64,000 bases of DNA from an uncultured Gammaproteobacteria bacterium (GTDB lineage: Bacteria; Patescibacteriota; Patescibacteriia; Veblenbacterales; UBA10138): assembly GCA_964348825.1 (NCBI GenBank), contig CAYGDX010000003.1, forward strand, positions 22,184 to 86,183, written 5' to 3'. Under the pieces are notes generated by a model, which saw nothing but the letters and a program-made list of their open reading frames with translations, did not search any database and had not been told where the DNA came from. How positions within the stretch are numbered: the stretch's first letter is position 1; each line of letters opens with the position of its first letter. Positions 762-61,262 of this stretch are shown one piece after another. Made by a program: the position numbers and the translations under genes.

Positions 762-1274
762 CTAATTACTATCATAAAACATTTGGTAAAAATTGTCTTC
801 CTGCAAACTAGCTAAAAATTCTTCCGGATGCACACTTAATTCTCGTTTTAAATCAACTGGTGAAAACCATTTTACTTCAGCCACTTCTTTGGGCTCAAAT
901 TTTATATCTTTAATATCTGTGTCTAAATTAACAATATAAAATTGTGTAAAATGATTCCATTTGGTTTTAACATGAATTTTAGGTCCAATTTTTAAATCAG
1001 ACAATTTCAAATCCAACCCCAACTCTTCCTTGGTTTCTTTAATTATATTTGATTCATAAGTTTCCCCTTCTTCTACTGTACCAGCCACGGCCGGCCCCCA
1101 CTGCCCCGGATTATGTGATTTATTGTAAGCGCGCCGCGCGAGTAAAAATTCGCCTTTACTATTCGTCAACCACAAAGCCGCTACGCGATAAATAATTTTT
1201 AAATCTTTATCATCGCGCTCTTTTACTCCAATTGGATTATCATTTTCATCTACAATTATAATTTTTGATTTCAT
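762..1274 (-). CDS. NUDIX hydrolase, isopentenyl-diphosphate isomerase-like subgroup
   Basis: Nudix box GTVEEGETYESNIIKETKEELGL. The region RVAALWLTNSKGEFLLARRAYNKSHNPGQWGPAVAG resembles Idi type 1. Confidence 0.7.
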   Translation of the reverse strand: MKSKIIIVDENDNPIGVKERDDKDLKIIYRVAALWLTNSKGEFLLARRAYNKSHNPGQWGPAVAGTVEEGETYESNIIKETKEELGLDLKLSDLKIGPKIHVKTKWNHFTQFYIVNLDTDIKDIKFEPKEVAEVKWFSPVDLKRELSVHPEEFLASLQEDNFYQMFYDSN

Positions 1275-1281
1275 ATTTTTA

Positions 1282-1863
1282 TCACAAACTAATTCCCACT
1301 TGCTTAGCTAAATCTTTCACTAACTCCCAAGGTAGCCCGCGCGCACTATCTTCGCCACCTTCCACTTTTAAATAAAATGGTTTAAGCGATGATTCATCTA
1401 ATTCAAAACCTCCAGCATGACTAAAACATTTGCCTGAGGCAACATAATTATCAATCACTTCGTTTGTTACTGGTCGCCAATACACCTTGGCCACGGCCGA
1501 TCCAACCGCTTGTTCGCCAGAACTTAAATTTGTTACTGCCACGCCATTAATATGCACGGTAGGTTCGTCGCCATAACTTTGTAAAAATCTTTTAGCTTCC
1601 GCTTGGTCAACTGGCTTTTCTCTTAACTCACCTTTATAAAGCACTACTTGATCAGCTGTGATAAGTATAGCTGGTTCGTTGCATTTGATTTTAGATACCA
1701 ACGCATCGGCCTTAGCTTTGGCCAGCGCCATAGTTAATTTTATTGGATCGTCGTCGCGAATAGCTTTTTCATCAATATCAGCTGGCCTAACTTCATAAGT
1801 TAAACCTAATTTATCTAATACTGACTGACGTGATTTAGAAACTGAACCTAAAATAATTTTCAT
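1282..1863 (-). CDS. maf: Maf-like nucleoside triphosphate pyrophosphatase
   Basis: N-terminal ILGS-S-R motif, 193 aa, the typical Maf/YhdE length, with matching conserved layout. Confidence 0.8.
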   Translation of the reverse strand: MKIILGSVSKSRQSVLDKLGLTYEVRPADIDEKAIRDDDPIKLTMALAKAKADALVSKIKCNEPAILITADQVVLYKGELREKPVDQAEAKRFLQSYGDEPTVHINGVAVTNLSSGEQAVGSAVAKVYWRPVTNEVIDNYVASGKCFSHAGGFELDESSLKPFYLKVEGGEDSARGLPWELVKDLAKQVGISL

Positions 1864-1946
1864 AGGATATTAATTTATATTTCAAAATATCGACATTTTT
1901 AAATATCGAAATTTCGATATTTTGATATGTCGAAATATTAAAATTG

Positions 1947-2390
1947 TTATTTGTTTAAAATCTGTTTTAAATATTCATCAAATTCCTGATCTTGATTATT
2001 AACCCGCTTAAACTGTTGGCCTGAAAGCGCACTACCCTTTACTTTATCCACAAAACTCTGAATCAAACGTGACACTTCGTTAGTTAAACCCAAACCTTTA
2101 TTTAATACCGCTTCATTAATAAATCGGCGATCGAATGAAATATAAAGTTGCGCCCTCACTTCACCAGTTTCACCTTTAGCAATAAACAAAGCATCAATGA
2201 ATTCATTTTTAGTGCCCCGGTCAAAACCTTCGGCGATATTAGAAAGTGGTGATATAGCCGCCCGACGAATTTGTCGTTTTAAATCAAAATCTTTAAACTG
2301 AGCTTGGTCGGTAATATCAAAAATAAAATTTGCCAGTTCTCTAGCTCTTTGCCAACAAATCAAATCTTCAAACTTTTGAATTGTCGCCAT
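1947..2390 (-). CDS. Four-helix-bundle protein (23S rRNA intervening-sequence protein family)
   Basis: 147 aa. FEDLICWQRARELANFIF...IAEGFDRGTKNEF is the hallmark of the TIGR02436/PF05635 family. Confidence 0.65.
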   Translation of the reverse strand: MATIQKFEDLICWQRARELANFIFDITDQAQFKDFDLKRQIRRAAISPLSNIAEGFDRGTKNEFIDALFIAKGETGEVRAQLYISFDRRFINEAVLNKGLGLTNEVSRLIQSFVDKVKGSALSGQQFKRVNNQDQEFDEYLKQILNK

Positions 2391-2461
2391 AAAAAATTTC
2401 TTAATATTAATATATTAAAATTTTAAAATGTCGATATCTCGAAATTTCTAAATATTAAACC

Positions 2462-2920
2462 CTACCAACCCAACTCTTTAAGTGCGGCTTCAGCATAAAA
2501 TAAAACATTAGTGCGCAAATCCATCGTGCCCAACTCCTCTTTTGTTGCCCAACGGGCCAAACTTTTCTCGTGATCATTAACTGCACTAGAAATAACATCC
2601 GTACCAGCTTTTGCAAAATATACAAACGTAACGTGTTCATGATTTTCGTTTACCATATTTTTGCCCATATACCTTGGGGCAATGATAGAAAAAAAATTAT
2701 CATCTTTAAATGGGGGTATACTCCCACAAATTTCAATATCTAACCCCACCTCTTCCTTTACTTCACGAATAGCCGCCTCATTCGGATCTTCATCAAGCTC
2801 AATGTGTCCACCAATAGATAACCAATAACCATATTTATCATGCTTACGAAGTAGTATTTTATTTTTATACACAATAAAAACCTCCACCGTAAAATCAATT
2901 TTTTCATGAATGTGTGGCAT
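2462..2920 (-). CDS. NUDIX hydrolase
   Basis: Nudix box GGHIELDEDPNEAAIREVKEEVGLD. Confidence 0.75.
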   Translation of the reverse strand: MPHIHEKIDFTVEVFIVYKNKILLRKHDKYGYWLSIGGHIELDEDPNEAAIREVKEEVGLDIEICGSIPPFKDDNFFSIIAPRYMGKNMVNENHEHVTFVYFAKAGTDVISSAVNDHEKSLARWATKEELGTMDLRTNVLFYAEAALKELGW

Positions 2921-2932
2921 GATAATTACTAA

Positions 2933-3376
2933 TTAACTAATATAAAATTCTTTTTGCAAATAATTTTTTACCATCTTCGCGCTCGGTGGAAAAAGTGGTG
3001 CTGGTAAATTATTTAAATCAAACCACTGCCACTCCACAATTTCATCCGGCTCCATAACTTTTACCTCACCACTAAAATCATCACTAAACATACCTACAGT
3101 AATAAAATGGGCATGTTCATTTTTATCATTGTTTACACACATTACTTTAACCAACTTTAATTCCAAACCCGTTTCCTCCTTTACTTCACGCTTCGCACCT
3201 TCTTCAAACGATTCTCCAAATTCCATTTTACCACCTGGCATAGTCCAACTACCTTCGCCGTGAAGCTCGGAATCGGCTTTAAGTGGATCAGAATGCCGGC
3301 GCCCCAAAAGCACCTTGCCGTCTTTAAAAATCATCACCCCAAACCCGCCTCTAACCTTTTGATTATTGTCTGTCAT
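2933..3376 (-). CDS. NUDIX hydrolase
   Basis: Nudix box PGGKMEFGESFEEGAKREVKEETGLE. Confidence 0.75.
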   Translation of the reverse strand: MTDNNQKVRGGFGVMIFKDGKVLLGRRHSDPLKADSELHGEGSWTMPGGKMEFGESFEEGAKREVKEETGLELKLVKVMCVNNDKNEHAHFITVGMFSDDFSGEVKVMEPDEIVEWQWFDLNNLPAPLFPPSAKMVKNYLQKEFYIS

Positions 3377-3386
3377 ATAAATAAAA

Positions 3387-3803
3387 TTAATTAAGTAAAC
3401 CTCTTTTCAATAAATCGGGAATTATTTTATTTCTAATAATCGGAGAGGTTTTTGGATTAGTTATATAACTTTTATCAATCCAGTGAATATTTTTTACTTC
3501 TGTTGATGCTTTTGGCTCACCAATAATTTTGCCAACATATAATTTAATAGAAACATCTCTATCTGATTTACCAGCCGCAATATCAGTGTATTCATTAACA
3601 TAAACAAGCGAATTTAAATCAACTTCGCAATTTAATTCCTCTTTTATCTCCGCTTTTAACGTCTCAACTTCAGTTGCCTCTTGAAATTGACCGCCGGGCA
3701 TAATGTAATCTGAAGTAACATTACTAGGGTCTTTCTCGCAAACCAGAAACTTGGTTTGATCGTCATTTAAAATTAATAAAGCAATTTTATTATAGTACGC
3801 CAT
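3387..3803 (-). CDS. NUDIX hydrolase (divergent)
   Basis: PGGQFQEATEVETLKAEIKEELNCE Nudix-like box, 138 aa. Confidence 0.6.
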   Translation of the reverse strand: MAYYNKIALLILNDDQTKFLVCEKDPSNVTSDYIMPGGQFQEATEVETLKAEIKEELNCEVDLNSLVYVNEYTDIAAGKSDRDVSIKLYVGKIIGEPKASTEVKNIHWIDKSYITNPKTSPIIRNKIIPDLLKRGLLN

Positions 3804-3816
3804 ACATTAAAATTAA

Positions 3817-4275
3817 TTACTTTTTTAAATACATTTTCACACCTTCTAAAATACCAGAGGTAAAAAACTTTGCGGGCACCACCTTTTCTAATTTAACCCA
3901 CTCATAACCCTTATGCTCACGACTAATCTTAATTTTACCACTTACGTACTTAGCCTCAAAAAATACATACAAAACATGAATCTCTTTTTGCCTACTGCCG
4001 GATTTCTTTGGTAATAAATGCCTCCCCACCGCCACCGGCTTACCCTTCACTATAAATTTTATATTACCTATCTCTTCCCTCACTTCTCTTTCTATAACCT
4101 CCATCAAATCAGTTCTGAATTCATCTGTATCAATTCTACCTCCAGGTAAATCATAAAAACCAGCAAAACTACCACCTTCTACGGCTTTTAGAATCAACAC
4201 TTCGCCGTCTTTATTTTTCAAAAACAACTTTAATGAAATTTGATAAAAATCTTTAGTTTTTTTCATAAGAACCAT
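3817..4275 (-). CDS. NUDIX hydrolase
   Basis: LPGGRIDTDEFRTDLMEVIEREVREEIG Nudix box. Confidence 0.65.
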   Translation of the reverse strand: MVLMKKTKDFYQISLKLFLKNKDGEVLILKAVEGGSFAGFYDLPGGRIDTDEFRTDLMEVIEREVREEIGNIKFIVKGKPVAVGRHLLPKKSGSRQKEIHVLYVFFEAKYVSGKIKISREHKGYEWVKLEKVVPAKFFTSGILEGVKMYLKK

Positions 4276-4278
4276 ACT

Positions 4279-4731
4279 TTAGTTTGATACCACGTATGCG
4301 AGTACGTTAAATTCAGGATCAAAAAATTCTATCATCTCATACTCCGGCCTCACTATAACACGAAGATTGTTTGGACACTTATGTAAATACTCTTTTTTAA
4401 AATTTTCGTAGTTAGTTTCAAAATCATTGCAACCAACTTGTGGACGCTCGGGGTCTGGCTGTCTAATGCGTAAATGCGTGATTTTATTACTTCCAACTAT
4501 AATTGGCACATTCGACTCTGCTCGCGGACCATTATGAAAACTATAGACTTTTCCTATCTCGCCAAGAATTTTAGTTAATAATTCGTACTCTGACTCCGAA
4601 TGTGAAAAAATTGTCAACGACTTAATTGGAAAAGTTTTACCAACTAAATTTTCGGCCAACTTAGATGTTTCAGTGGCAATATAATGTACTGTCTCTAACA
4701 ACCCCTCTTTATTCTGAATTAATTTTTCCAT
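4279..4731 (-). CDS. Hypothetical protein embedded in the NUDIX operon
   Basis: 150-aa ORF with a 4-nt gap to its neighbours. I recognise no family. Confidence 0.4.
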   Translation of the reverse strand: MEKLIQNKEGLLETVHYIATETSKLAENLVGKTFPIKSLTIFSHSESEYELLTKILGEIGKVYSFHNGPRAESNVPIIVGSNKITHLRIRQPDPERPQVGCNDFETNYENFKKEYLHKCPNNLRVIVRPEYEMIEFFDPEFNVLAYVVSN

Positions 4732-4773
4732 TTTTATAAACTACTCAATATTAATCTCTTTATTTATAAAAAA

Positions 4774-5169
4774 TTATTCTATGTCCAACTCCTTAAAACC
4801 AGTAGCGGAGTCAAAAAATCTTTTATACGAGGCGTCATCAAATATTCCAATAACAACCTCTGCTGTAACTTCCACCTTACAACCATCTTTCAAATGACCG
4901 CCGATTACCTTACCATCTTTATCAGAAACAGATATGTGTATATGACAACCATCTTGTGAAATTGTTCCAGTTCCAGAAACAATCTCAAACGCCCCCTCAA
5001 ACTTCTTTACGATTTGATTTTGTGGAGTTGCGCCAGCCATTCTTAAATTAACCTCTTTAAGCGAACCAACAATTGACAATAAAACTCCAGCCTTAATATT
5101 TCTAGATCTATTCTCAATTTCTTCTTTTAAAAATTGATTTGGTTTTAACCGAAATGTTAGTTGCCTCAT
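4774..5169 (-). CDS. PPC/DUF296 domain protein (PD1-like DNA-binding fold)
   Basis: 131 aa. LSIVGSLKEV.LRMAG...FEIVSGTGTIS...HIHISVSDKDGKVIGGHL matches the DUF296 pattern. Confidence 0.5.
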   Translation of the reverse strand: MRQLTFRLKPNQFLKEEIENRSRNIKAGVLLSIVGSLKEVNLRMAGATPQNQIVKKFEGAFEIVSGTGTISQDGCHIHISVSDKDGKVIGGHLKDGCKVEVTAEVVIGIFDDASYKRFFDSATGFKELDIE

Positions 5170-5205
5170 AATATTATTAACTAATGAGATAATTATCTCA
5201 AATTA

Positions 5206-5703
5206 TTATGAATTAAATCTTTGCCACTCAGTTTTTTTACCTTGTCTTTTATTATCAACCATTGCCAATTCATCATAAATACCATCTATCAATTGATAAT
5301 TTTTAGCCTCTTCTAAACTAACCCAAGCAAACTGATCACTTTCTTCAGTTTGTAATATAATTTCACCCGCCACATAATCGGCCATGCACGATATTACCAG
5401 TGACGGACTGCCATCAGCATGAATCGTGGCTAAGCTGGTCACGTATTCAATATTTTCAATCTCAATCCCCACTTCCTCTTTCACCTCACGACGCAGGGTT
5501 TGTTCTAAAACATTGTACCAATAATGCTCTGTATCTTTTGGTAATTGCAAATAATCACTGGTTTCCATTTTACCACCCGGCACTGTCCACATTCCAGGAA
5601 AACGTTTTTTATTTGGTGATCGTCGTGTAATTAAATACTTTCCGTCTTTTACAATAATGGCAGTAATTACTACTTCGTGAAGATATTGATTGGTTGCGTT
5701 CAT
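5206..5703 (-). CDS. NUDIX hydrolase
   Basis: VPGGKMETSDY...LRREVKEEVGIEIE Nudix box. Confidence 0.75.
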   Translation of the reverse strand: MNATNQYLHEVVITAIIVKDGKYLITRRSPNKKRFPGMWTVPGGKMETSDYLQLPKDTEHYWYNVLEQTLRREVKEEVGIEIENIEYVTSLATIHADGSPSLVISCMADYVAGEIILQTEESDQFAWVSLEEAKNYQLIDGIYDELAMVDNKRQGKKTEWQRFNS

Positions 5704-5714
5704 AATTTTTTTAA

Positions 5715-6125
5715 TTACACAAAAAATTCTTTTAGTTCTTTTGTCACTTTAGATAACTCTTCATCAGTGGGATTGGATCGTTTGCCCTCCAAAAGAGATT
5801 TGGAAGTAATGTCATGATAATCGTGCATTGGAACAATGTGAATGTGTGTATGTGGAATATCAAATCCGGCAACTATTAGTCCAACTTTTTTAGGATTCAT
5901 TGCGCGCTCTACAATGCTTGCTAAATTTTTTACCACATTCATGAGGTGACTATATGTATCACTGTCTAAATTGTAAAAATCCGATTCATGTTTTTTGGGA
6001 ATTACGAGCAGATGTCCAGGATTAATCGGATGTTTATCAAGAAAAGCAATAACTTTATCGTCATCATATACAACATGTGCAATAACTTCTTTATTACTAA
6101 TTTTGCAGAAGATACATTCGTTCAT
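5715..6125 (-). CDS. HIT-family (histidine triad) nucleotide hydrolase
   Basis: CIFCKI N-terminus and histidine triad HTHIHIVP. Confidence 0.8.
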   Translation of the reverse strand: MNECIFCKISNKEVIAHVVYDDDKVIAFLDKHPINPGHLLVIPKKHESDFYNLDSDTYSHLMNVVKNLASIVERAMNPKKVGLIVAGFDIPHTHIHIVPMHDYHDITSKSLLEGKRSNPTDEELSKVTKELKEFFV

Positions 6126-6145: not shown

Positions 6146-8863
6146 CTAGGCCCCATGACACTTCTTATATTTCTTTCCACTCCCACACGGACACAAATCA
6201 TTCCGTCCGACTTTTTCCCCTGATTCGTCGCGCACCTTACTTTCCACTCCTGCGCTAGAAGAAGTGAGTACCTTAGCAAACACACTCCCTGCCTCCGCCA
6301 TAGTTTTAGCTGGGCCGGATTCTTGCATAGTAAATCGTGGCGCTGACTTTTCGCTTGCAATATTTTCTACCACACTCACTTTAAAAACATTGTAAACTAC
6401 TTGATCTTGAATTGAGCCAAGTAATTGTTTGTACATTTTATAACCCTCGCGCTTATATTCCACCAACGGATCGCGCTGACCATAACCTTGAAGTCCTATT
6501 CCGCCTCGCAAATGATCCATCGCGGTTAAATGTTGCACCCACAAAGTATCAATGCTACGCAGTAAAATAGTTTTTTCGGCCTCACGCATTACTTTTTCGG
6601 GCTCGGGTAATGATTGTTTGGTAGCATGATCCACTACTTTAGCTTCTAATTTTTTATATTCTTCTTTAGCCAAACTAACTAAATAATTAATAAAAGCATC
6701 GCGCTTAGCTGGTAGTGATAATGATTTATCATCACCACAAATTTCAGCCAATGCCTTACGCGCTGAGGATTCAAGTGGAAAAATAGAATTTATTACTTCA
6801 TAAATTTCTGGCAAATTCCATTGTGATTCATCTTCTAGCGCGGTATGAAATGCTACTACCTCGACGATTTCATCAGCTACATATTTTTCTACTAGCAATG
6901 ACAAGTGAGTAGTATCGCCTTCGGCCGATTTTAAAATTTCTCGTCGCTTATTATAAATTGATTCACGTTGTTTATTTAACACATCATCATATTCCACTAA
7001 GTGTTTGCGAATATCAAAATTATGACCTTCCACTTTTTTCTGCGCCGTTTCAATTGATTTAGAAACTAAACCATTCTCAATCGGCATATCATCGGGTACA
7101 TTCAGCCGATCCATTAGTCGCTTCACTCTGTCGCCACCAAAAATTCGCATTAAATCGTCTTCCAGTGATACATAAAATTGCGAGGCACCTGGATCACCTT
7201 GCCGGCCACCACGACCTCTGAGCTGATTATCAATTCGCCTTGATTCGTGTCGTTCAGTACCTAAAATCAATAACCCACCAGCTTGTTTAACTGCTTCGGC
7301 TTCTTCAACCACCACTGGACTACCACCTAAAATAATATCTACGCCACGGCCGGCCATATTTGTAGCAATCGTGACCGCCCCTTTTCGCCCCGCTTGCGCA
7401 ATAATGGCCGCTTCACGCTCATGGTGTTTAGCATTTAATACTTCGTGTGGTACGCCGGCTTGTTTTAATAATTCAGATAAAATTTCATTTTTTTCAATCG
7501 AAATGGTACCAACCAACACTGGCTGGCCTAATTCGTGCCGGCGTTTTACTTCCTGAACCACCGCTTTAAATTTACCAAGTTCGGTTTTAAAAACACTATC
7601 CGACAAATCTTTACGCACCATCAACCGATTCGGTGGCACCGCTATTACTTCCAAATTATAAATTTTGGCAAATTCTTCCGCTTCGGTGGTGGCTGTACCA
7701 GTCATACCTGATAATTTTTTATACAACCGGAAATAATTTTGAAATGTAATGGTGGCAAGGGTGAGTGACTCGCGCTGAATTTTAACACCTTCTTTAGCCT
7801 CAATCGCTTGGTGCAAACCTTCAGAGTACCTGCGACCAAACATTAAACGACCCGTAAATTCATCTACAATTACCACTTCACCTTCACGCACTACATAATC
7901 GCGATCAAGTTTAAATAAGGTGCGGGCTTTAAGCGCCTGCTCTAATAAATGTAAAATATCTAATCCCCCTTCGTATAAATTATTTATGCCTAAATGTTTT
8001 TCCGCTTTGGTTATAGCGCTTTCCGTAAAAGTAGCGGCGCGCATTTTTTCATCTACATTATAATCTTCGTTTTCGGCGAGGGTAGCTACGAACCGCGCGG
8101 CATCCAAATACTTTTCAGTAGCTTCTTCAGCTGGTGCGGAAATAATAAGTGGCGTACGTGCTTCATCAATCAAAATTGAATCTACTTCGTCTACAATCGT
8201 GTAATGAAGCGGGCGTTGTACCATTTCTGAAGCGCGCCACACCATATTGTCACGCAAATAATCAAAACCAAATTCATTGTTGGTGCCGTAAGTAATATCA
8301 GCTTGGTACGCCTCGCGACGACTCACAGCCCGTAAATTATTATAAGTGGCATCATCGTGTTTCACTTCTGGATCAAATAAATATCCGCGCTCGTGATTAA
8401 TACAAGCAACTGAAAGACCGAGTGCATTATAAATTTTACCCATCCAAATACAATCGCGCCGCGCCAAATAATCGTTCACTGTAACCACGTGCACACCCTT
8501 GCCTTCTAAGGCGTTCAAATACACGGGCAAGGTAGCAGTTAAAGTTTTACCTTCACCAGTTCTCATTTCCGCAATATTCCCACGATGTAAAATAATACCA
8601 CCCAAAATTTGCACATCAAAATGACGCTGAGAAATTACGCGCTTAGCAGTAGCGCGCACGACCGCAAACGCTTCAGGCAACAAATCATCCAGTGTTTCAC
8701 CCTTAACTAAACGTTCTTTAAACACCGCTGTGCGAGCTAACAATTCCGCCTCACTTAATTTCTCAAACTCTGATTCTAATTCGTTGACACGTGAAACAAG
8801 CGGCTGTAATTCTTTAATTACCCGCGCATTTGGATCACCAAATAATTTATCTAAAAAACTCAT
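6146..8863 (-). CDS. secA: Preprotein translocase ATPase SecA
   Basis: 905 aa. DEAD-like motor motifs ([17 protein letters not shown]), PPXP region, and C-terminal Zn finger [14 protein letters not shown]. Confidence 0.95.
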
Positions 8864-10919: not shown

Positions 10920-11786
10920 TTATTTATAATGCGCGTAGCCGATTATTTTGTAAGCCAATTTTGTCACCAAAAAATCTCCAGCCGGTTGCCCAGCGATTGG
11001 CGCGAGCTCCACCACATCGGCTCCCACAATTTTACTTTGCTTTGTAACTGCCCGAATTAATTCTACAACTTTATACCAATCCAGTCCGCCCGGTTCTGGT
11101 GTGCCAGTACCTGGTACAAAACTGGGATCAAAACCATCCACATCAACCGTAATAAAAACTTGATTAGTTAAAGTTTTAAGTATTTTATCAATTGGTACTT
11201 CGGGTGCTTGAAAAATCCTACTGCCGAGACCGGCTTTTTTGATAAAACTAATTTCTTCTTCACAAGTTGAACGAATGCCAACCGCCGTAACCGGTACACC
11301 TAAATCATACACTCGGCGCATGGCGCAGGCATGGCTCCACTTCGTACCTTGATATTCATCACGCAAATCAGTATGCGCATCAATTTGAAGCACTGATAAA
11401 TTTTTATATTTATTTTTAAAAGCCGCCACCACGCCAGGTGTAATAGAATGCTCGCCACCTAAAACTAACGGCCATTTACCTGACTTTAAAATTCCTACTA
11501 CTGTATCTTGAAGTCGCTTAACATTACTTTCGGGACCACTCATATCGGGCTCAAATTCAGGAAAAGTAAAAAATCCCAAGCGCGAAACGTCTTTATTCAA
11601 TTCACTGTCCCACAATTCCAAGTGTCTAGAGGCCTCTATAATCGCGCTAGGGCCACGCGACGTGCCTCCACCATAAGTTGTAGTGGATTCATAAGGCACA
11701 GGCAAAATAGCGACTTTGGCTTTAGCCCAAGGCACTTCTGGCAACCCGCCGAAATTAAAGGGCTCTTTGGAATGTTTTAGTTTCAT
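10920..11786 (-). CDS. speB: Agmatinase (arginase/ureohydrolase family)
   Basis: Mn-binding motifs GGEHSIT, DAHTDL, DVDGFDPSFVPGTGTPEPGG. Adjacent to an arginine decarboxylase gene. Confidence 0.75.
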   Translation of the reverse strand: MKLKHSKEPFNFGGLPEVPWAKAKVAILPVPYESTTTYGGGTSRGPSAIIEASRHLELWDSELNKDVSRLGFFTFPEFEPDMSGPESNVKRLQDTVVGILKSGKWPLVLGGEHSITPGVVAAFKNKYKNLSVLQIDAHTDLRDEYQGTKWSHACAMRRVYDLGVPVTAVGIRSTCEEEISFIKKAGLGSRIFQAPEVPIDKILKTLTNQVFITVDVDGFDPSFVPGTGTPEPGGLDWYKVVELIRAVTKQSKIVGADVVELAPIAGQPAGDFLVTKLAYKIIGYAHYK

Positions 11787-11830
11787 AAATTAGTTAGAAG
11801 TTACTAGTCAATAGTTCAAAGTTTAAATTT

Positions 11831-11908
11831 CATTAGAACATTAGATCATTAGAACAAAAAAACAAAAAATTGATAAAGTGTTCTACTGTTCTAGGGTTCT
11901 AGTGGTGT
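11831..11908. promoter_or_regulatory. Palindromic 9-mer array element (3x cattagaac-like, AT-rich centre, 3x gttcta-like) upstream of speB
   Basis: cattagaacattagatcattagaac-aaaaaaacaaaaaattgataaa-gtgttctactgttctagggttctagtg. Same architecture recurs at 16748, 34252, 36741 and 59566. Confidence 0.6.
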
Positions 11909-11910
11909 TA

Positions 11911-11958
11911 AAATTTCAGAGATTGCCATGCTCGTCTCGCGACTCGCTCGCAATGACG
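11911..11958. repeat. Gene-3'-end repeat (agagattgcc...caatgacg family), copy A
   Basis: aaatttcagagattgccatgctcgtctcgcgactcgctcgcaatgacg sits immediately 3' of minus-strand gene 11960..12274. Homologous copies at 19191 and 20793. Confidence 0.55.
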
Positions 11959-11959
11959 A

Positions 11960-12274
11960 TTATTTAATAATCATAAACTTCAATAACAAAATCACTGCCA
12001 TAAACCCCACCAGAAAACCTAGCGTCATAAATAACAATTTTATACTTTCTTTTTTCTGCCCATCAATGTACCACATCACTGGCCGACCAAAAATCAAACT
12101 GCCCACCATCGCCACTGAAACAACTAGCAAAGTTAAAAATGTAATCGGCGCCCACAATGTTTTTTCATTACCAACCAAATTCTCAGCCTGCATCATAAAC
12201 CAACTAACTAGCGCCACATAAACCAAAACCCCAAGGGCCTGTAAAAAGCTATAACGAATTAATTTTTTATCCAT
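11960..12274 (-). CDS. Small membrane protein (104 aa, about 3 TM helices)
   Basis: Hydrophobic ORF between speB and speA on the same strand. Confidence 0.45.
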   Translation of the reverse strand: MDKKLIRYSFLQALGVLVYVALVSWFMMQAENLVGNEKTLWAPITFLTLLVVSVAMVGSLIFGRPVMWYIDGQKKESIKLLFMTLGFLVGFMAVILLLKFMIIK

Positions 12275-12336
12275 AAAATTATAATTAATTTAAAATTTAC
12301 AATCTTTAATTTCTTAACTAACTTATCTTAAATATA

Positions 12337-13704
12337 TTACCAACCAAATTGCTTACCCACTTCTTCTGCCGTCTCTCGCTTACGTGCCACGGTAATAATA
12401 CCATTTTGCACAATAATTTTAGTCGGCGAAGATAACATACAATGGTATGAAGATAACGCATCTTGATAAGCACCCGTATCAAAAATAGCTAAATATTGTT
12501 GCTGACCAACTTCTAAATCCTCTAATCTGGGTAATAAAATATAACTTCCACCATTAGTATATTTATCATCTGAATCACAAGAAAGCCCAGCCAACCACAC
12601 CCGTGATAATTTTTTAGCGTCTAAATTATTCACTGGCACAATATGCCATTTTTGATGAATCGCCCATGTATCTTTTAAATCATTCATAAAACTACCATCT
12701 ACCACATACCATTTTTTCACCATCGCTCCATTATTAATTTCTTTTTCTGAAAGTACGCGATAAATAGTTACTTGTGCCGGCGCCACCAAATAACTTCCCC
12801 ATTCCACTAAGATATCAGGGTGCGGAATATTAGCCCGATCACAAGCCTTCTGAATATTTTTTAAAATACTTTTTATCACACCTTCAGTTGAAAACAATGG
12901 CTTCTTTTCAAATGGCACTGGCATACCACCGCCAATATCAATCATATCCAAACTCGGATGCATCTTTTTAAGCTTAATATAAAGATCCATGGCTTTTTTA
13001 AGTGGCGCTGTAATATCCTCTTGATATTCTAGTTGTTTAGAAGTGTGATAATGTAAAAGTTTTAAATTACGAATCCGGCCAAAAGATAAAATTTCCTCAG
13101 CCGTTAAACCAAAGCGATTAAATTTTTTATCCCAATGACCATGCACTTTTACTTGTGTATCTAAACGAATACCAACATCGCCCCTGTAAGTTGAAAGCGC
13201 GGCCAATTCAAATTTATCTTCAATAATTGGAGTAATGGCCAAACCCTTGTCACGCAATTCAAAAATCAAAGCTAAATACTGGTTAGTTTTTGGACCATTA
13301 CAAATTACCCGTATTTTACTAGAAAATTGTTCTTGTTCCCACAATTTTTTTACAATCCATAATTCATTGGCACTCGTTACCTCTAAATTTCCTCCTTCGG
13401 AAATAATTGGTAAAATAAATTCCTTATTTTGACTAGCTTTCATCGGGTAATGATAAAAAAACTTGCCACGATAGCGGTAAGCTCTTATCCATTTATTAAA
13501 CAGTTGGATCAAATCACTTAAACGCTGCTCCACTACAAAAGGCAAGGCCACTTCCAAAGAACTGCCGAATTTTTTTACTAAATCAAATAAATTATATTGG
13601 TAATTACCCTCCCGCACCACGAGTTCACCATCGCGATTAATATCAAAAAAATCCGTATTAACATCGGCTCGACCTAATTTCCAAAACTGATAATATTTTT
13701 TCAT
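12337..13704 (-). CDS. speA: PLP-dependent arginine decarboxylase-like enzyme (Orn/DAP/Arg decarboxylase fold III)
   Basis: YHYPMKASQN (Lys-binding region), DIGGGMPVPF, and the C-terminal GLSCDSDDK motif characteristic of SpeA-type enzymes. Next to agmatinase. Confidence 0.6.
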   Translation of the reverse strand: MKKYYQFWKLGRADVNTDFFDINRDGELVVREGNYQYNLFDLVKKFGSSLEVALPFVVEQRLSDLIQLFNKWIRAYRYRGKFFYHYPMKASQNKEFILPIISEGGNLEVTSANELWIVKKLWEQEQFSSKIRVICNGPKTNQYLALIFELRDKGLAITPIIEDKFELAALSTYRGDVGIRLDTQVKVHGHWDKKFNRFGLTAEEILSFGRIRNLKLLHYHTSKQLEYQEDITAPLKKAMDLYIKLKKMHPSLDMIDIGGGMPVPFEKKPLFSTEGVIKSILKNIQKACDRANIPHPDILVEWGSYLVAPAQVTIYRVLSEKEINNGAMVKKWYVVDGSFMNDLKDTWAIHQKWHIVPVNNLDAKKLSRVWLAGLSCDSDDKYTNGGSYILLPRLEDLEVGQQQYLAIFDTGAYQDALSSYHCMLSSPTKIIVQNGIITVARKRETAEEVGKQFGW

Positions 13705-49034: not shown

Positions 49035-49382
49035 TTATAACTTATTATACTTCGTATGCTTACCATAAGATTTGGCTATTGGATATTTAGCATCATCTTT
49101 AACTATCTTTTTCTGCACCGCCTTAGCTAAATCTATATTTAAACTATCACAAAACAATAATAAATATTTCAAAACATCGGCTATCTCATCACTTATATCT
49201 GCTTTAGAATTTTTAACATACTTATCAATTTCTTTTTTATTTAACCATTGAAAATGCTCTAACACCTCCCCCGCTTCTAATAATAAGGATAAGGCTAAAT
49301 CTTTTGGATTGTGAAATTGTTTCCAATTCCGCTCGTCCCGAAATTTAACAACTTGTTTGGTTAATTTTTGAATATCAGACAT
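49035..49382 (-). CDS. MazG-like nucleotide pyrophosphohydrolase
   Basis: FRDERNWKQFHNPKDLALSLLLEAGEVLEHFQW signature. Confidence 0.7.
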   Translation of the reverse strand: MSDIQKLTKQVVKFRDERNWKQFHNPKDLALSLLLEAGEVLEHFQWLNKKEIDKYVKNSKADISDEIADVLKYLLLFCDSLNIDLAKAVQKKIVKDDAKYPIAKSYGKHTKYNKL

Positions 49383-50153: not shown

Positions 50154-50567
50154 TTAAATCGCCATTAAGCTTCTTATTCTTTCAGCGACTTGCTCGCGCT
50201 CGCCTGCCTTATAATCTTTCCCTTGCCACGAACCAAGACCGTCGCCAGTTTGCCGTGGCATAATGTGAACATGGGCGTGAAAGACAGTTTGCCCCGCGAC
50301 AACGCCGCAATTTACCCCGATATTAAACCCTTCTACACTAACCGCTTGAATTACAAATGGTGAAATTTTATGTACCACTGAAAATAATTTACCGACTTCA
50401 TCTTCTGACATTGCAATTAAATCAGTATAGTGTTTTTTGGGAATTACTAATACATGCCCCGGATTCACTGGCTTAATATTTAAAAATGCTAAAAATTCAT
50501 CATCTTCATAAACCTTAGACGACGGCAACTCCCCGGCTACAATTTTACAAAAAATACAATCGGACAT
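50154..50567 (-). CDS. HIT-family hydrolase (second copy)
   Basis: CIFCKI N-terminus and HAHVHIMP histidine triad. Confidence 0.8.
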   Translation of the reverse strand: MSDCIFCKIVAGELPSSKVYEDDEFLAFLNIKPVNPGHVLVIPKKHYTDLIAMSEDEVGKLFSVVHKISPFVIQAVSVEGFNIGVNCGVVAGQTVFHAHVHIMPRQTGDGLGSWQGKDYKAGEREQVAERIRSLMAI

Positions 50568-55260: not shown

Positions 55261-55725
55261 TTACTCTACACTCGCATTTTTATTTAATTTTTTATCCCAC
55301 AACTTCGTTAAATATAATTCAGCGCGAAAGTTATCTAACTCTAAACTCCACAAAGTTAAAGCCGCGGTTAATAGGGCCACATTTTTCCAAACCAACGAAA
55401 AATCAAGAATAATAAAAAATATTATAAAAGCCAATACGGTGAGAAGTGCTGCAATTTCAGTAGCCAAACCTAAAATAAGCATACTACCTAAAATAATTTC
55501 ACCGATTGATTGATAAAAAACAAATAACTCTGGCTCCATTGGCAGCCAAGTGAACGACGACACTAAACTCACGGCTTCGCTGGCATTGGTGCAAACACCT
55601 AAGGCATTTGAATCGGCGCCAAATTTACTAAGCCCTGACCAAAGAAAAATAAAACCAAGGGATAAACGGAGAATGAGCGGGAGGTAAGGTTTGAGTGTTT
55701 GACGAATTTTAATTGTGCTAATCAT
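55261..55725 (-). CDS. DoxX-family membrane protein
   Basis: LILRLSLGFIFLWSGLSKF signature, 154 aa. Confidence 0.6.
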   Translation of the reverse strand: MISTIKIRQTLKPYLPLILRLSLGFIFLWSGLSKFGADSNALGVCTNASEAVSLVSSFTWLPMEPELFVFYQSIGEIILGSMLILGLATEIAALLTVLAFIIFFIILDFSLVWKNVALLTAALTLWSLELDNFRAELYLTKLWDKKLNKNASVE

Positions 55726-55757
55726 ACTAAGTGTTATGAATTAAGAATTAGTTTTAT

Positions 55758-55946
55758 TTTGTTACTTCTTTAATAGAAGTAACCATGAATCGCAGGCCAC
55801 GGTCTCCAAGTTTGAACAGTGCTCGTCAAACGAGCTGGTCAGGCCTATGCACAGCGACCACAAACACGGCCTGACCGGACGCTCGTTTGATTCCCTGCCT
55901 ACCGGCAGGCAGGCGCTCTGTACAAACTTTCCGACATGGCCGCACA
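55758..55946 (+). ncRNA. Copy 2 of the four-copy GC-rich structured repeat. Terminal hairpin gttacttc-tttaata-gaagtaac at 55760-55782.
   Basis: Core ...gtctccaagtttgaacagtgctcgtcaaacgagctggtcaggcctatgc..ggcctgaccggacgctcgtttgattccctgcctaccggcaggcaggcgctctgtacaaactttccgacatggccgcac. The last ~70 nt are identical to copy 3. Confidence 0.6.
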
Positions 55947-56020
55947 ACTTTTGGGAATTGGGATTTTTAAAAATTAGTTATTAGTTGTTAGTGATTTTCC
56001 CCGCCACAGCGGGGCAAGCT

Positions 56021-56106
56021 GGATTCCCGCCGGAGTTTACCCCGCACCAAGATGCGGGGCGGGAATGACCCCACTTCGCCAAGGCTACGTGGGGCGAGCA
56101 ATTCTT
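56021..56106. repeat. GC-rich element homologous (reverse complement) to 14148-14279; contains a ggattcccgcc...ggcgggaatgac hairpin
   Basis: See the 14148 feature. Confidence 0.55.
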
Positions 56107-56437
56107 ACTCTTTCTTGACCTCTTTAATTGCTACTTCCCGTACGACTTTAGTTAACTGCCGATCAAATTTTTCCAATCGCACAAAAATTTTAAACAATAA
56201 ATAAAAAACTAACAGAATTGACAAATAAATTATTAAATCACTCCCCCGCCCCACACCAACTACATCGGCCATATAGGAAGCAATTTTTGGTTCCAAACCA
56301 ACCACCCCAATTACTAGCCATAATAAAAGCCATTCCCAAAATTCTGAACGTTTTATTTCTTGGGCGCGCAGGCGGCTAAATAATCGCCACCAAACGATTA
56401 ACACGACTAACAAGATAATAAACTGGATTAAAGACAT
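56105..56437 (-). CDS. DUF2304-like small membrane protein
   Basis: 110 aa, 3 TM helices, directly downstream of a GT2 polyprenyl-phosphate sugar synthase, the usual DUF2304 context. Confidence 0.5.
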   Translation of the reverse strand: MSLIQFIILLVVLIVWWRLFSRLRAQEIKRSEFWEWLLLWLVIGVVGLEPKIASYMADVVGVGRGSDLIIYLSILLVFYLLFKIFVRLEKFDRQLTKVVREVAIKEVKKE

Positions 56438-56586
56438 AAAAAATTAAAATGTAAATATAAAAATGGAAAATGACAGATTAAAATTTAAAATGAATTGTAA
56501 CCTATTTAATATCTAAGGAAAAATTATTATCTAATTATTTTTTAATTTTTCATTGTCATTTTTATTTTTGATTTTTTATTTTTAAA

Positions 56587-57282
56587 TTATTTAAACATTC
56601 TCCCTACCACCAAATCTTTTACAATCTTCGCCGCTGGCCATTTGCCTTGTTTACTACCCTTCAAACTACTTTCAGTATAGCGCACTGTAACTGGTACTTC
56701 CACCCAAGTAATATTACAACGTTTTATCTCATCAATTACTTCTGAACTAAAAGCCATTAAATCCTGTCTAAAATTAAATTTTTGCCAAGCGGAACTGGTG
56801 AAGGCACGAAAACCATTGTGAGCATCGGTTAATTTAATACCTGAAAAAATCCAAGTAAAAATAATAGCTAGTTTTAAAGTTAGATAGCGAAGTTTTGGCA
56901 TATCAATCACTTTTCCCAAAAAACGCGACCCTAAAGCTACGCTTGGTACACCAAGTTGTAAAGCGCCAACTAATCGTGAAATATCATTGGCTTCAAATTG
57001 ACCATCAGCATCAAAATGAATTATGATATCGGCGCCGCGAGATACGGCATAATCTGAACCAGTAACAAGTGCCGCCCCATAACCGCGATTTACTAAATGC
57101 TGCAAAACAATCGCGCCCGCGGAAGTGGCAAGGTTAGCTGTATCATCATCTGAACCATCATCAACCACTACCACTTTATCAACTATCTTTTTCACTTTTA
57201 TAACCACGTCTGCAATATTTTTAGCTTCATTTTTAGCTGGAATAATTACCCACGTATTCATTTTCCTTGCTCCTTCCACCAT
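56587..57282 (-). CDS. GT2 polyprenyl-phosphate glycosyltransferase (DPM1/GtrB-like)
   Basis: VIIPAKNEAKNI...VVVVDDGSDDDT and catalytic D-x-D region. Confidence 0.8.
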   Translation of the reverse strand: MVEGARKMNTWVIIPAKNEAKNIADVVIKVKKIVDKVVVVDDGSDDDTANLATSAGAIVLQHLVNRGYGAALVTGSDYAVSRGADIIIHFDADGQFEANDISRLVGALQLGVPSVALGSRFLGKVIDMPKLRYLTLKLAIIFTWIFSGIKLTDAHNGFRAFTSSAWQKFNFRQDLMAFSSEVIDEIKRCNITWVEVPVTVRYTESSLKGSKQGKWPAAKIVKDLVVGRMFK

Positions 57283-58163
57283 TTAAAAGTTAAACGTAGT
57301 CCTTCTATAAGCGGCACCTGAGGCGACCAATTTAATTGAGCTTGTGCTTTATCTGAATTAAACACTGAAATTAGCGCTTCACCCGAATCAAGCGCAATGT
57401 AATTTACTTTTGGCACTTCACCTATAACTTGCCCAATAGCGAGCGCTAATTCTCGGAAACTAATACCCTCACCAGTTGATAAATTATAAACTCCTTGACC
57501 AAATTGTAAAGCTTGAAATATTCCTTGTGCCGCATCAGTTACATACAAATAATCACGCACTGATTCGCCTTGACCTGGTAGAAGTAATGGTTCTGACTCC
57601 AGTGCCGCTTTAACAAAGCGCGGCATAGTGCCAGCTAATTGACGTGGGCCAAATATGCGAGTCAAACGCGTAATAACCTGCGGCAGACCATAATTTTCCG
57701 CATAATAATTTAAATAACCCTCGGCCGTTACCCGTGATAAAGCATAAAATGAAGTTGGCTCAATATCATCATTTTCTTTAATTGGTTTGTCACTCGACTT
57801 ATAAACTGCCAAGCTTGAAACATATAAAAATTTTTTTATTTTTAAATCTTTTAAGGCCGATAGTAAATTAACTGTGCCAACCACAGCTACGCTTAAATCA
57901 TGACTTGGATTATTATTCGCAGCTGAAACAACATTCACGCCAGCTAACTGACAAACATAATGTGGTGAAATTTTTTTTATTAAGGCGGATAGTTTAGGTG
58001 AACAGATATCAAGTAAATGAAATTTAGCCGCCTTTGGTACAAATACTTTGCGTCCAAAAGATAAGTCATCTATAACATGAACTTCAAAACCAGCCCGCAA
58101 AGCTATTTCAGCTAAATGCGAACCAACAAAACCAGCGCCGCCAACAATTAGTACTTTAAACAT
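57258..58163 (-). CDS. NAD-dependent epimerase/dehydratase (SDR)
   Basis: VLIVGGAGFVGSHL Rossmann motif, YALSR (YxxxK variant). Confidence 0.7.
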   Translation of the reverse strand: MFKVLIVGGAGFVGSHLAEIALRAGFEVHVIDDLSFGRKVFVPKAAKFHLLDICSPKLSALIKKISPHYVCQLAGVNVVSAANNNPSHDLSVAVVGTVNLLSALKDLKIKKFLYVSSLAVYKSSDKPIKENDDIEPTSFYALSRVTAEGYLNYYAENYGLPQVITRLTRIFGPRQLAGTMPRFVKAALESEPLLLPGQGESVRDYLYVTDAAQGIFQALQFGQGVYNLSTGEGISFRELALAIGQVIGEVPKVNYIALDSGEALISVFNSDKAQAQLNWSPQVPLIEGLRLTFKWWKEQGK

Positions 58164-58181
58164 AGTTAATATAATACTTTT

Positions 58182-58368
58182 TTGTTACTTCTTTAATAGA
58201 AGTAACCAAGAATCGCGGCCTTCGTCTCCAAGTTTGAACAGTGCTCGTCAAACAATCTGGTCAGGCCTATGCCGAGCGACCACATACACGCCCAAGCCGG
58301 ACGCTCGTTTGATTCCCTGCCTACCGGCAGGCAGGCGCTCTGTACAAACTTTCCGACATGGCCGCACG
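58182..58368 (+). ncRNA. Copy 3 of the four-copy GC-rich structured repeat. Terminal hairpin at 58184-58206.
   Basis: ttgttacttctttaatagaagtaacca..gtctccaagtttgaacagtgctcgtcaaacaatctggtcaggcctatgc...ggcgctctgtacaaactttccgacatggccgcac. Confidence 0.6.
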
Positions 58369-58423
58369 ACTTTCTATGATTTATTTTTCTAATTTCGAAT
58401 TTAGTGCTTCGGATTTGGAATTT

Positions 58424-59563
58424 TTATTTTATATACTTCTTCAACTCTTTCACCATATCCAACTTCTCCCAAGTAAACCCCTCACCCATGCGGCCAAAAT
58501 GACCATAAGTAGCGGTGGCTTGATAAATCGGCCGACGTAATTTTAAATGTTCAATTATCTCATACGGTGTCAGTGGAAAATGATTTTCAATAATTTTTAT
58601 TATTTTGTCATCTGGTAACGCACCGGTACCAAAAGTATTTACTGCCAAACTAACAGGCACAGGTTCACCAATCGCATAAGCTAGTTGTACTTCGCACTCG
58701 CGAGCTATTCCTGCCGCTACTAAATTTTTCGTGATATAACGGGCCGCGTACGAAGCTGAACGATCAACTTTGGAAGCATCTTTACCCGAAAAACAGCCAC
58801 CACCATGATGCGCCCGACCGCCATAAGTATCTACGATTATTTTGCGACCTGTCAGGCCAGTATCGGCCTCCGGCCCGCCAATTACAAATCGACCGGTAGC
58901 ATTAATAAAAACTTTGGTTTTATTATCAAATAGTAACCCGCAAATTTTTTTTATTACTTCTTTTTCTAATTCCGCTCGCAATTTAACTAAAGATACATTT
59001 GGATCATGCTGGGCCGCTAGTACCACACTAAAAATTCTTTTTGGTTTGCCACTTTCATATTCCACCGCCACCTGACTTTTGCCATCGGGCCTGAGACCTT
59101 TCACAATCCCCTTCTTTCTTACCTCAGCTAAACGCATAGCTAACTTATGCGCCAACATAATTGGTAAAGGCATAAATTCCGGAGTTTCAAGGCAAGCATA
59201 ACCAAACATCAATCCTTGATCACCCGCACCAATATTTTTTGCTGAACGCACTACGCCACGTTTAATATCCACCGACTGTTCGTGTAGCGCCACCAGCACA
59301 CCAGCGTCAGAAGCATCAATTCCAAAATCAGGATTGGTATAACCAATCTCACTTAAAACTTGCCGCGCAATTTTTTGCACATTCACATAACCGCGCGTTG
59401 ACACTTCACCGCCCACCAACATCACACCAGAAGTAACATATGTTTCAATGCCAGCACGAGTAAAGGGATCTTGGCGTAATAATTCATCTAAAATTGCGTC
59501 GGATACTTGATCACAAATTTTATCGGGATGACCCTCGGTAACTGATTCTGAAGTATAAATCAT
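58424..59563 (-). CDS. metK: S-adenosylmethionine synthetase
   Basis: [33 protein letters not shown] and DTYGG motifs. Confidence 0.95.
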
Positions 59564-59565
59564 AT

Positions 59566-59650
59566 CATTAAAACACTAGAACATTAAAACATTAGAACAT
59601 TATTAATAAAAATCTTGTTTCTATGATCTAGCGATCTAATGTTCTAATGT
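59566..59650. promoter_or_regulatory. Palindromic 9-mer array element beginning 3 nt upstream of the metK start codon
   Basis: cattaaaacactagaacattaaaacattagaacat-tattaataaaaatcttgtttctatg-atctagcgatctaatgttctaatg. Confidence 0.55.
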
Positions 59651-59658
59651 AAATATTA

Positions 59659-60678: not shown

Positions 60679-60763
60679 AATTAAAATAGATATGAATAAG
60701 CTCTTTTATTATAACAAAAAAAGGCCAAATTTGAAACCGGCCAAAATTTTCCCCCTAATTTCA

Positions 60764-61180: not shown

Positions 61181-61262
61181 AGAGTAAATATATTATCTAA
61201 CAAAACCATGAGTCGGTATAGAAAATTTAAAACAAAAATTTTAAATATCAAAATATTATTTT

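Follow-up and report, generated by a model that had tools for sequence, protein, structure and literature searches.

What does a bacterium gain from keeping six Nudix hydrolase genes within a single run of eleven genes directly downstream of secA? The question is posed by a 64,000-nucleotide stretch of DNA (hereafter the window; assembly GCA_964348825.1, contig CAYGDX010000003.1, positions 22,184–86,183) from an uncultured member of the Patescibacteria, or candidate phyla radiation (CPR). Besides the Nudix proteins, which we refer to as NudA–NudF in order of transcription, the run encodes a HIT-family hydrolase, a PCC/DUF296 (PPC) domain protein, a Maf-family nucleotide pyrophosphatase, a four-helix-bundle protein (4HB) and a 150-residue protein (unk150). 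We consider it somewhat more probable than the reverse that this array is a lineage-conserved, rapidly remodelled set of house-cleaning nucleotide hydrolase genes between secA and secDF.

Architecture of the gene run

An open reading frame (ORF) check placed the eleven genes on the minus strand directly downstream of secA (6146–8863, minus strand; 905 residues, SecA Pfam domains), which anchors the array, and returned the same coordinates as an earlier note on this DNA. The transcription order is secA, HIT, NudA, PCC, unk150, NudB, NudC, NudD, NudE, 4HB, Maf and NudF, and the gaps from secA to NudF are, in order, 20, 11, 36, 42, 3, 13, 10, 12, 71, 83 and 7 nt. Beyond the array, the source contig (ENA metagenome contig ERZ27247837 k141_1088634) continues with two unknown ORFs, an ABC transporter gene and then secDF. 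Searches with Pfam and NCBIfam models confirmed all ORFs and families that the earlier note had listed for the run, and likewise the second HIT gene (50154–50567) and the MazG-like gene (49035–49382) that it had placed elsewhere in the window.

That so many house-cleaning hydrolases in one place are unusual, as had been remarked, is borne out by the numbers: the window contains no Nudix ORFs other than these six, their occurrence within 11 consecutive genes of 73 has an approximate p of 2e-4, and the corresponding slot is enriched in relatives too (see below). The arrangement of the genes resembles that of their surroundings, in that the minus strand carries 59 of the 73 ORFs (81%), same-strand gaps have a median of 25 nt and a separate stretch of 22 co-directional genes occurs in the window; at 0.34–0.36, the array also matches the rest of the window in GC content. 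A tRNA scan found no tRNA, and Rfam gave no match at the gathering threshold in the window.

Expression of the array probably depends on read-through from the secA promoter and would then be constitutive and low. Read-through is proposed because a terminator scan found no terminator-like site in the intergenic gaps of the array and because the best promoter-like site in a promoter scan lies upstream of secA (9346–9317), although both scans are uninformative in such AT-rich DNA.

The Nudix proteins are separately conserved lineages

We assessed the six Nudix proteins against the PF00293 gathering threshold (21.1 bits) and the Nudix box GX5EX7REUXEEXGU; all coordinates in this and the following sections are on the minus strand unless stated otherwise. 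Five of the six pass the threshold, with 44–84 bits. The box is canonical in NudD (2933–3376; 84 bits) and in NudE (2462–2920). In NudF (762–1274; core KETKEELGL) a Lys replaces the Arg, and in NudA (5206–5703; 62 bits) and NudB (3817–4275) the box is interrupted by insertions of 14 and 3 residues, respectively, with the REVxEExG core intact (REVKEEVGI in NudA, REVREEIG in NudB).

The sixth protein, NudC (3387–3803; 138 residues), scores 20.8 bits, 0.3 below the cut-off, and carries the non-canonical box AEIKEELNC. As judged by profile searches and structure prediction, NudC is a genuine Nudix protein despite its sub-threshold Pfam score, because (i) it matches the PADLOC Nudix model (E 5e-10), (ii) PF00293 is annotated on most of its orthologues and (iii) its AlphaFold2 model (pLDDT 90.6) superposes on Nudix structures: BdRppH, with a Foldseek TM score of 0.79, MutT2 and MTH1. 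In an alignment of 267 Patescibacteria homologues, 60–76% identical (one of them labelled as from a Woesearchaeota (DPANN) metagenome-assembled genome (MAG)), the box keeps the constant form (A/N)EIKEEL(N/S/D)C, in which the three core Glu residues are kept and the Arg, the upstream Glu and the closing Gly are lost. The check for lost Nudix boxes thus finds one degenerate box among the six, and because its form is the same throughout the family, this box is a conserved variant and not a product of decay; the family-wide conservation together with the intact predicted fold rules out NudC as a decayed pseudogene. A HIT–NudC gene pair recurs in one distant locus.

The earlier note had described the Nudix genes as paralogues and had asked whether they arose by tandem duplication or by acquisition, and the answer is neither. 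Pairwise identity among the six is 20–33%, their nearest relatives differ and they fall into separate orthogroups on clustering, which rules out tandem duplication and with it the idea of local duplicates. Conserved-family searches across Patescibacteria were made for two families, NudC (see above) and NudE; the latter is a CPR-wide family with 3590 matches, the top ones 60–70% identical, and across both families orthologues reach 60–76% identity. Recent horizontal acquisition of NudC or NudE is ruled out by these large conserved families and by a GC content typical of the window. As far as sequence comparison can tell, the six are long-standing, separately conserved lineages that have been gathered or kept together.

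Nearest relatives and candidate substrates of the Nudix proteins

Assignment of each Nudix gene to a subfamily by hidden Markov models, as the earlier note had proposed, succeeded in part: no curated subfamily cut-off was reached, and the nearest solved structures differ protein by protein. None of the Nudix, Maf or HIT proteins of the array attains an NCBIfam equivalog or exception cut-off. For the Nudix proteins the NCBIfam scores are 44 bits against a cut-off of 158 for NAD+ diphosphatase, 45 against 116 for RppH and 23 against 134 for CoA pyrophosphatase, the ADP-ribose and Ap4A equivalog cut-offs are likewise far from reached, and the MutT equivalogs TIGR00586 and NF008044 give 23–37 bits against 97.9 and 148, respectively, with NudD scoring best (35–37).

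NudD aligns over its full length (E 1e-21) with its nearest solved structures, Arabidopsis NUDX1, Rickettsia 4kyx, NUDT15 and MTH1, with which it shares a canonical box, but it misses the curated equivalog cut-offs. It is predicted to be the most MutT-like array member by function. Members of the NUDX1 family also hydrolyse dihydroneopterin triphosphate and geranyl diphosphate, and because the family takes such other substrates, 8-oxo-dGTPase activity of NudD is only a guess.

The structure matches of NudA, NudB, NudE and NudF are weak (26–76 bits). NudA is nearest to the pyrimidine (d)NTPases NudI and NudG (50 bits against a cut-off of 156 for NudG in NCBIfam), NudB to the MutT-related Methanosarcina mazei structure 3grn and then NudI, NudE to Clostridium perfringens 3f6a, Pyrobaculum aerophilum 1jrk and the characterized NudB-type dihydroneopterin-triphosphate/dATP pyrophosphatase, and NudF to DR0079 and isopentenyl-diphosphate isomerase (IDI). 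By sequence, NudC has no significant match to solved structures. The enzymes that stand out as best matches of these four proteins (NudI, NudG, DR0079/YfcD, the NudB type and 3f6a) are mostly (d)NTP or NDP pyrophosphohydrolases.

The similarity of NudF to IDI does not extend to the active site. Type-1 IDI carries its catalytic Cys in the motif NxxCxHP. At this place NudF reads AVAGTV, GPAVAGTVEEGE has neither Cys nor His at the motif position, and the scores against the type-1 IDI models are 58 and 41 bits against cut-offs of 127 and 105.8; we therefore rejected NudF as a type-1 IDI.

The HIT, Maf and PCC proteins

The HIT protein (5715–6125; Pfam HIT 70.6 bits), which starts 20 nt after secA, has the histidine triad HxHxHxx in the form HTHIHIV. 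Its nearest NCBIfam families are HinT models, the cut-offs of which it misses (82 bits against 130, and 35 against 206). The Maf protein (1282–1863) matches PF02545 with 125 bits over residues 2–188 of 193 and falls just short of the subfamily model TIGR00172 (106.8 bits against 117.15); Maf enzymes prefer m5UTP, pseudo-UTP, m5CTP and m7GTP, modified nucleotides that RNA turnover sets free (PMC3899018). The PCC protein (4774–5169; Pfam PCC 98 bits) has an orthologue between two Nudix genes after secA in a relative (locus L009, 192 bits).

These assignments bear on the suggestion, also made in the earlier note, that the array is a dedicated module for the turnover of signalling nucleotides. Its enzymes would then break down alarmones or second messengers, for example Ap4A, (p)ppGpp or cyclic nucleotides. 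ApnA hydrolases are known in the HIT family and in some Nudix families, the structural neighbours of NudC (Foldseek) include an Aquifex Ap4A hydrolase, and E. coli MutT is listed among ppGpp-binding and ppGpp-metabolizing proteins (PMC10981312). However, an NCBIfam scan of ten array proteins gave no equivalog-level match, whether to RppH/NudH, to ApnA hydrolases or to other types, the HIT protein lies on the HinT branch, and the nearest characterized homologues are mostly (d)NTP-sanitizing enzymes. Moreover, neither the run nor the syntenic loci contain a gene for a synthetase, cyclase or effector, the run also lacks a receptor gene, and six different hydrolases would be excessive for a single signal. 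The suggestion is thus not upheld, and we regard a signalling role as highly improbable.

unk150 is a regular member of the neighbourhood

unk150 (4279–4731) has no Pfam or NCBIfam family match. It has 243 homologues, 60–82% identical (nearly all 60–70%), across very different Patescibacteria lineages, and its family comprises 284 clusters at 50% identity. The homologue alignment contains many invariant Arg, Lys, Asp and Glu residues, among them R70, R88, R90, D93, R96, D103 and E135, a set that suggests a phosphorylated ligand, as far as sequence conservation can be a guide.

The AlphaFold2 model (pLDDT 93.6) predicts a VOC/glyoxalase-like fold with a beta-alpha-beta-beta-beta module arrangement. 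Foldseek ranks E. coli YecM (1k4n; TM 0.66, E 3.8e-5) first, ahead of methylmalonyl-CoA epimerase and glyoxalase-type proteins. We know of no function for YecM itself. Homologues of unk150 include fusions to an ASCH domain (P0109) and to a Glyoxalase domain (P0130). In contrast, unk150 has no detectable sequence similarity to a chain in the Protein Data Bank (a sequence-profile search found no match even at E ≤ 10) or to a Pfam family, and it is set apart from the YecM/VOC proteins by its own set of invariant charged residues and its habitual position after secA. The protein is therefore predicted to have a known fold while belonging to no described family. With the exception of unk150, the array genes are new members of known families.

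The position of unk150 is recurrent. secA is the immediate upstream neighbour in 11 of the 60 metagenome loci that have such a neighbour, and manual counts in 66 metagenome loci found secA no more than four genes before unk150 in 21, and a Nudix, MazG-like or Maf gene in the same locus in 18. In relatives' loci unk150 typically follows secA, MazG-like or Nudix genes, and a recurrent order is seen downstream: unk150, a 333-residue protein, Nudix, an 89-residue protein and, further on, a 130-residue protein. unk150 is a regular member of the post-secA neighbourhood.

Conservation and replacement in a sister genome

We compared the window with a sister genome from Hainich groundwater (GCA_964360795.1; SecA 94% identical), in which the array is kept between secA and secDF; the sister locus consists of two contigs that abut inside NudC, at window position ~3595. 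On the secA side the sister order is secA, a 141-residue ORF, tRNA_bind, NTPase_I-T, Nudix129, unk150, Nudix162, HTH_5, NudB and NudC, and on the secDF side it is NudD, NudE, 4HB, Maf, NudF, a 178-residue ORF, a 172-residue ORF, ABC, SecD and SecF, so that the sister array holds seven Nudix genes and NTPase_I-T. From NudD through the 178-residue ORF the two genomes are 87–97% identical (NudD 95%, NudE 87.5%, 4HB 97%, NudF 96%), and NudB is 77% identical. The secA-proximal segments have been swapped: HIT–NudA–PCC in the window corresponds to 141aa–tRNA_bind–NTPase_I-T–Nudix129 in the sister genome, which also has an extra Nudix–HTH pair inserted after unk150, and no DNA similarity is left between the swapped segments. 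The question raised in the earlier note, whether the genes are scattered in related genomes, accordingly has a divided answer: the syntenic sister genome speaks for a cluster, and in distant relatives the genes are only partly co-located.

Such replacement could also be expected of a conflict island, in which swapped cassettes might eliminate modified (d)NTPs, whether phage-specific or host-derived, or immune signalling nucleotides. The turnover between the sister genomes is cassette-like, with other NTPases and Nudix genes as the replacements; each of the six Nudix proteins matches the PADLOC single-gene defence candidate PDC-S07; and an Avd-like four-helix-bundle gene with bracketing repeats lies inside the array. 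The PDC-S07 matches, however, reflect generic Nudix similarity, and PADLOC matched no multi-gene defence system, with Maf, 4HB, unk150 and PCC matching nothing. In addition, the run contains no nuclease, sensor, toxin, integrase or other defence hallmark, core genes flank the array, the GC content is genome-typical, and the families of NudC, NudE and unk150 are broadly conserved and under strong constraint, unlike typical defence genes. A conflict island is in our judgement very unlikely.

The slot after secA in related Patescibacteria

Compared with SecA from Patescibacteria/CPR MAGs that carry the labels Kerfeldbacteria, Veblenbacteria, Falkowbacteria, Buchananbacteria, Magasanikbacteria and Uhrbacteria, the window protein shows 55–72% identity. 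We surveyed the secA loci (±10 kb, some ending at contig ends) of 80 species-representative relatives and found 36 Nudix ORFs downstream of secA (552 kb of sequence) and 5 upstream (608 kb), an ~8-fold difference (binomial p 1e-7, a value that overstates the evidence because the 80 loci are not phylogenetically independent). All 36 downstream Nudix ORFs are co-oriented with secA and 27 of them lie within 3 kb. At least one is present in 20 of the 80 loci, the maximum being four, together with a HIT gene, in a Buchananbacteria MAG.

An unbiased Pfam count of the two ORFs nearest to secA on its downstream side (n = 102) puts NUDIX first (13), followed by SecDF (9), MazG-like (4), Maf (2) and NTPase_I-T (2). 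In the upstream control, 28 of 102 neighbouring ORFs encode the S30AE hibernation factor, 15 MurB and 5 an RseP-type M50 protease, and no house-cleaning family appears among the 25 Pfam families listed. At least ten Nudix orthogroups occupy the slot in relatives, and four of the six window proteins have orthologues downstream of secA in other species: NudA (L038, L058), NudB (L019), NudD (L019, L045, L048) and NudF (L008, L015, L044). In the closest class-level relative (L003) the order is secA, Nudix, MazG-like.

A sceptical account of these data is that there is no functional unit at all, and that a permissive, recombination-prone site after secA gathers small dispensable genes; Nudix genes would prevail there only because no other small accessory genes are as numerous in these genomes. 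The slot is highly variable, with methyltransferases, L,D-transpeptidases, FG-GAP proteins and numerous unassigned ORFs among its contents, at 94% SecA identity the secA-proximal genes are already different, long co-directional runs are the norm in this genome, and NudC and unk150 orthologues occur in other contexts. On the other hand, a merely permissive site sits poorly with the 8-fold scarcity of Nudix genes in the upstream 10 kb of the same genomes, with the convergence on one slot of the mechanistically related but structurally unrelated Nudix, MazG, Maf and NTPase_I-T families, with the distal eight genes being syntenic at 87–97% amino-acid identity in the sister genome, and with the existence of a secA–Nudix linkage in E. 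coli. We consider this account distinctly unlikely.

Three further observations concern the surroundings of secA. In relatives the post-secA side is hypervariable and the upstream side conserved. Several of their genomes encode SecD fused to a PPIase (rotamase) domain. In the window, an arginase-family gene and an ornithine/arginine decarboxylase gene (polyamine synthesis) lie beside the S30AE gene, a few kb upstream of secA (10920–13704).

Comparison with secA–mutT and with known house-cleaning enzymes

In E. coli K-12 the gene that follows secA, in the same orientation and after 59 nt, is mutT. The position of the array appears, by analogy, to repeat the logic of this pair: in E. coli secM–secA–mutT a Nudix gene stands right after secA, and here HIT follows secA after 20 nt and the first Nudix gene begins 11 nt beyond HIT. 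A secA–Nudix linkage of the E. coli type is found in at least 20 of the 80 related Patescibacteria species. The two arrangements differ in scale, with one Nudix gene in E. coli and six in the window together with HIT, Maf, PCC, unk150 and 4HB, and also in descent, in that E. coli MutT is a singleton when clustered with the Nudix proteins found after secA and none of the six is a MutT orthologue.

House-cleaning NTP pyrophosphatases are, to our knowledge, usually described as scattered single genes; the set described here differs in that putative enzymes of several superfamilies are concentrated at one conserved locus. Galperin reportedly grouped Nudix, all-alpha MazG/dUTPase, Maf/ITPase and YjjX as house-cleaning enzymes in 2006. 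The group is recognized as comprising Nudix, ITPase/YjjX, all-alpha MazG and Maf (PMC3899018), of which Nudix and Maf are present in the window array and MazG-like and NTPase_I-T (YjjX) proteins in the slot of relatives. Within the limited library that could be searched, we found no account of Nudix arrays in CPR, of a secA-anchored house-cleaning neighbourhood or of the secA–mutT linkage.

Proposed function of the array

We propose that the array provides a non-redundant Nudix set, which would consist of one NUDX1/MTH1-like, two NudI/NudG-like, one NudB/3f6a-like and one DR0079/YfcD-like enzyme and one with a non-canonical box, alongside a Maf pyrophosphatase and a HinT-type HIT protein; relatives would contribute MazG-like and YjjX-type NTPases. 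These enzymes would hydrolyse oxidized, methylated or otherwise non-canonical (d)NTPs and nucleotide adducts, and abnormal nucleotides would thereby be excluded from DNA and RNA. Such cleaning may be especially useful to an organism that probably scavenges nucleic acids with modified bases.

The earlier note had linked the array to a dependence on salvaged nucleotides. This rationale is plausible because the host is a CPR bacterium, and CPR bacteria seldom carry genes for de novo purine and pyrimidine synthesis (PMC6851277). In the annotated parts of the window prs and pyrG were the only nucleotide-metabolism genes noticed, although a 64-kb window cannot show the absence of a pathway. The same dependence would also suit a different role, that of a salvage or catabolic module, in which the hydrolases of the array (Nudix, HIT and Maf) mainly take apart nucleotide conjugates acquired by scavenging (ADP-ribose, NAD(H), CoA, NDP-sugars, aminoacyl or lysyl adenylates) and the resulting NMPs and sugar phosphates feed nucleotide and pentose metabolism, so that the array would serve nutrition and not quality control. 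Nucleotide salvage via RuBisCO has been described for CPR (bioRxiv 10.1101/2019.12.18.881540), the HIT protein resembles HinT, a nucleoside phosphoramidase type, and a cytidylyltransferase-like gene is present in the run of relative locus L044. Against a nutritional role, the Nudix proteins all stay below the equivalog cut-offs for ADP-ribose, NAD and CoA pyrophosphatases, their best characterized relatives act as (d)NTP pyrophosphohydrolases, the MazG-like, Maf and NTPase_I-T proteins that occur alongside are NTP pyrophosphatases and not conjugate hydrolases, and the run contains no nucleoside kinase, phosphorylase or nucleotide transporter gene. We think such a module unlikely.

Several observations weigh against the house-cleaning proposal itself. 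The substrates of the Nudix, Maf and HIT proteins are predicted from homology, with curated cut-offs missed, and the range of molecules cleaved by Nudix hydrolases extends to ADP-ribose, NAD(H), CoA, NDP-sugars, RNA caps and prenyl diphosphates. PCC, unk150 and 4HB are without a known link to nucleotide sanitation, and orthologues of both NudC and unk150 are found in unrelated gene contexts too. In the survey of relatives, 60 of the 80 loci (some cut by contig ends) have no Nudix gene downstream of secA, and the shared ancestry of these loci tempers the p-value given above. Finally, co-directionality and short gaps are the genomic background, and it is the family content of the run, not its layout, that is unusual; because such a layout is the default in this genome, co-transcription with secA is no more than probable.

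A bolder extension of the house-cleaning proposal is that the secA–secDF interval is a hypervariable island for nucleotide-pool hygiene, in which (i) four unrelated NTP-pyrophosphatase superfamilies are exchanged on short timescales, matching the foreign modified nucleotides that an episymbiont obtains from its host or from phages, (ii) the constant members, unk150 with its YecM-like VOC fold and NudC, both from strongly constrained families found throughout CPR, have new activities on nucleotide derivatives and (iii) an ancient linkage to secA, shared with E. coli mutT, sets the expression level. We offer this extension as a long shot.

The four-helix-bundle gene and intergenic repeats

The 4HB gene (1947–2390; 97 bits in Pfam) encodes a member of the 23S_rRNA_IVP/TIGR02436 four-helix-bundle family, with a full-length match above both curated cut-offs (PF05635, TIGR02436). 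It is bracketed by related AT-rich, TCGA-containing repeats (1871–1946 and 2391–2461), in which the TCGA motifs have an 8-nt periodicity, and within the window the motif ATATCGAAATTTCGATAT occurs three times (0.11 expected), each time in one of the two gaps beside the gene. On its 3' side an intergenic hairpin of ~25 bp (1864–1946) has a predicted fold of −21 kcal/mol (z −5.05).

The family match and the bracketing by inverted and direct repeats are features shared with the Avd-like proteins of 23S rRNA intervening sequences (IVS), and the repeats recall IVS stems. Unlike those proteins, 4HB is not encoded within an rRNA gene, and it is 97% identical at the same position in the sister genome; no reverse transcriptase gene is present in the eleven-gene run or among the annotated neighbours of 4HB. 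4HB is probably a passenger gene. The repeats and hairpin around it suggest a discrete cassette, a processing site or an operator, and the hairpin could be an element of RNA processing or stability, or an operator.

At the 3' end of the array lies a structured, GC-rich palindromic intergenic repeat (523–765, no strand assigned), one of four copies of ~190–240 nt in the window (the others at 55731–55966, 58175–58438 and 61259–61502) that are 72–78% identical. Members of the same family occur at ~15399 in L001 and at 3142–3376 in L176, and the 14-nt core motif reveals a fifth copy just outside the window. Structure prediction gives a long, rod-like hairpin with 50 pairs, and compensatory changes are seen in six of these; two copies have an extra 19-nt hairpin. 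The orientation of the repeat relative to flanking genes is not fixed, and the copy at the 3' end of the array is present at the same position in the sister genome. A search of 55600–61600, which contains three of the four copies, found no Rfam match at E ≤ 1. The repeat could be a new REP/MITE-like element (repetitive extragenic palindrome or miniature inverted-repeat transposable element), a transcript-punctuation element or a noncoding RNA.

Implications for CPR biology

Were the array merely a permissive gene dump, it would be a curiosity of genome architecture. The textbook adjacency of secA and mutT is not peculiar to E. coli. CPR bacteria are thought to live on scavenged building blocks, and how they avoid damaged or modified nucleotides among those they recycle is not addressed in the papers that we found. 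Up to seven Nudix genes together with Maf, HIT, MazG-like and YjjX-type genes would represent a heavy investment in nucleotide quality control or conjugate processing in an otherwise minimal genome. The array offers a compact panel of small enzymes for substrate screening, and for two conserved families of unknown function, unk150 and the Nudix proteins with the non-canonical box, the genomic company suggests a nucleotide-related chemistry.

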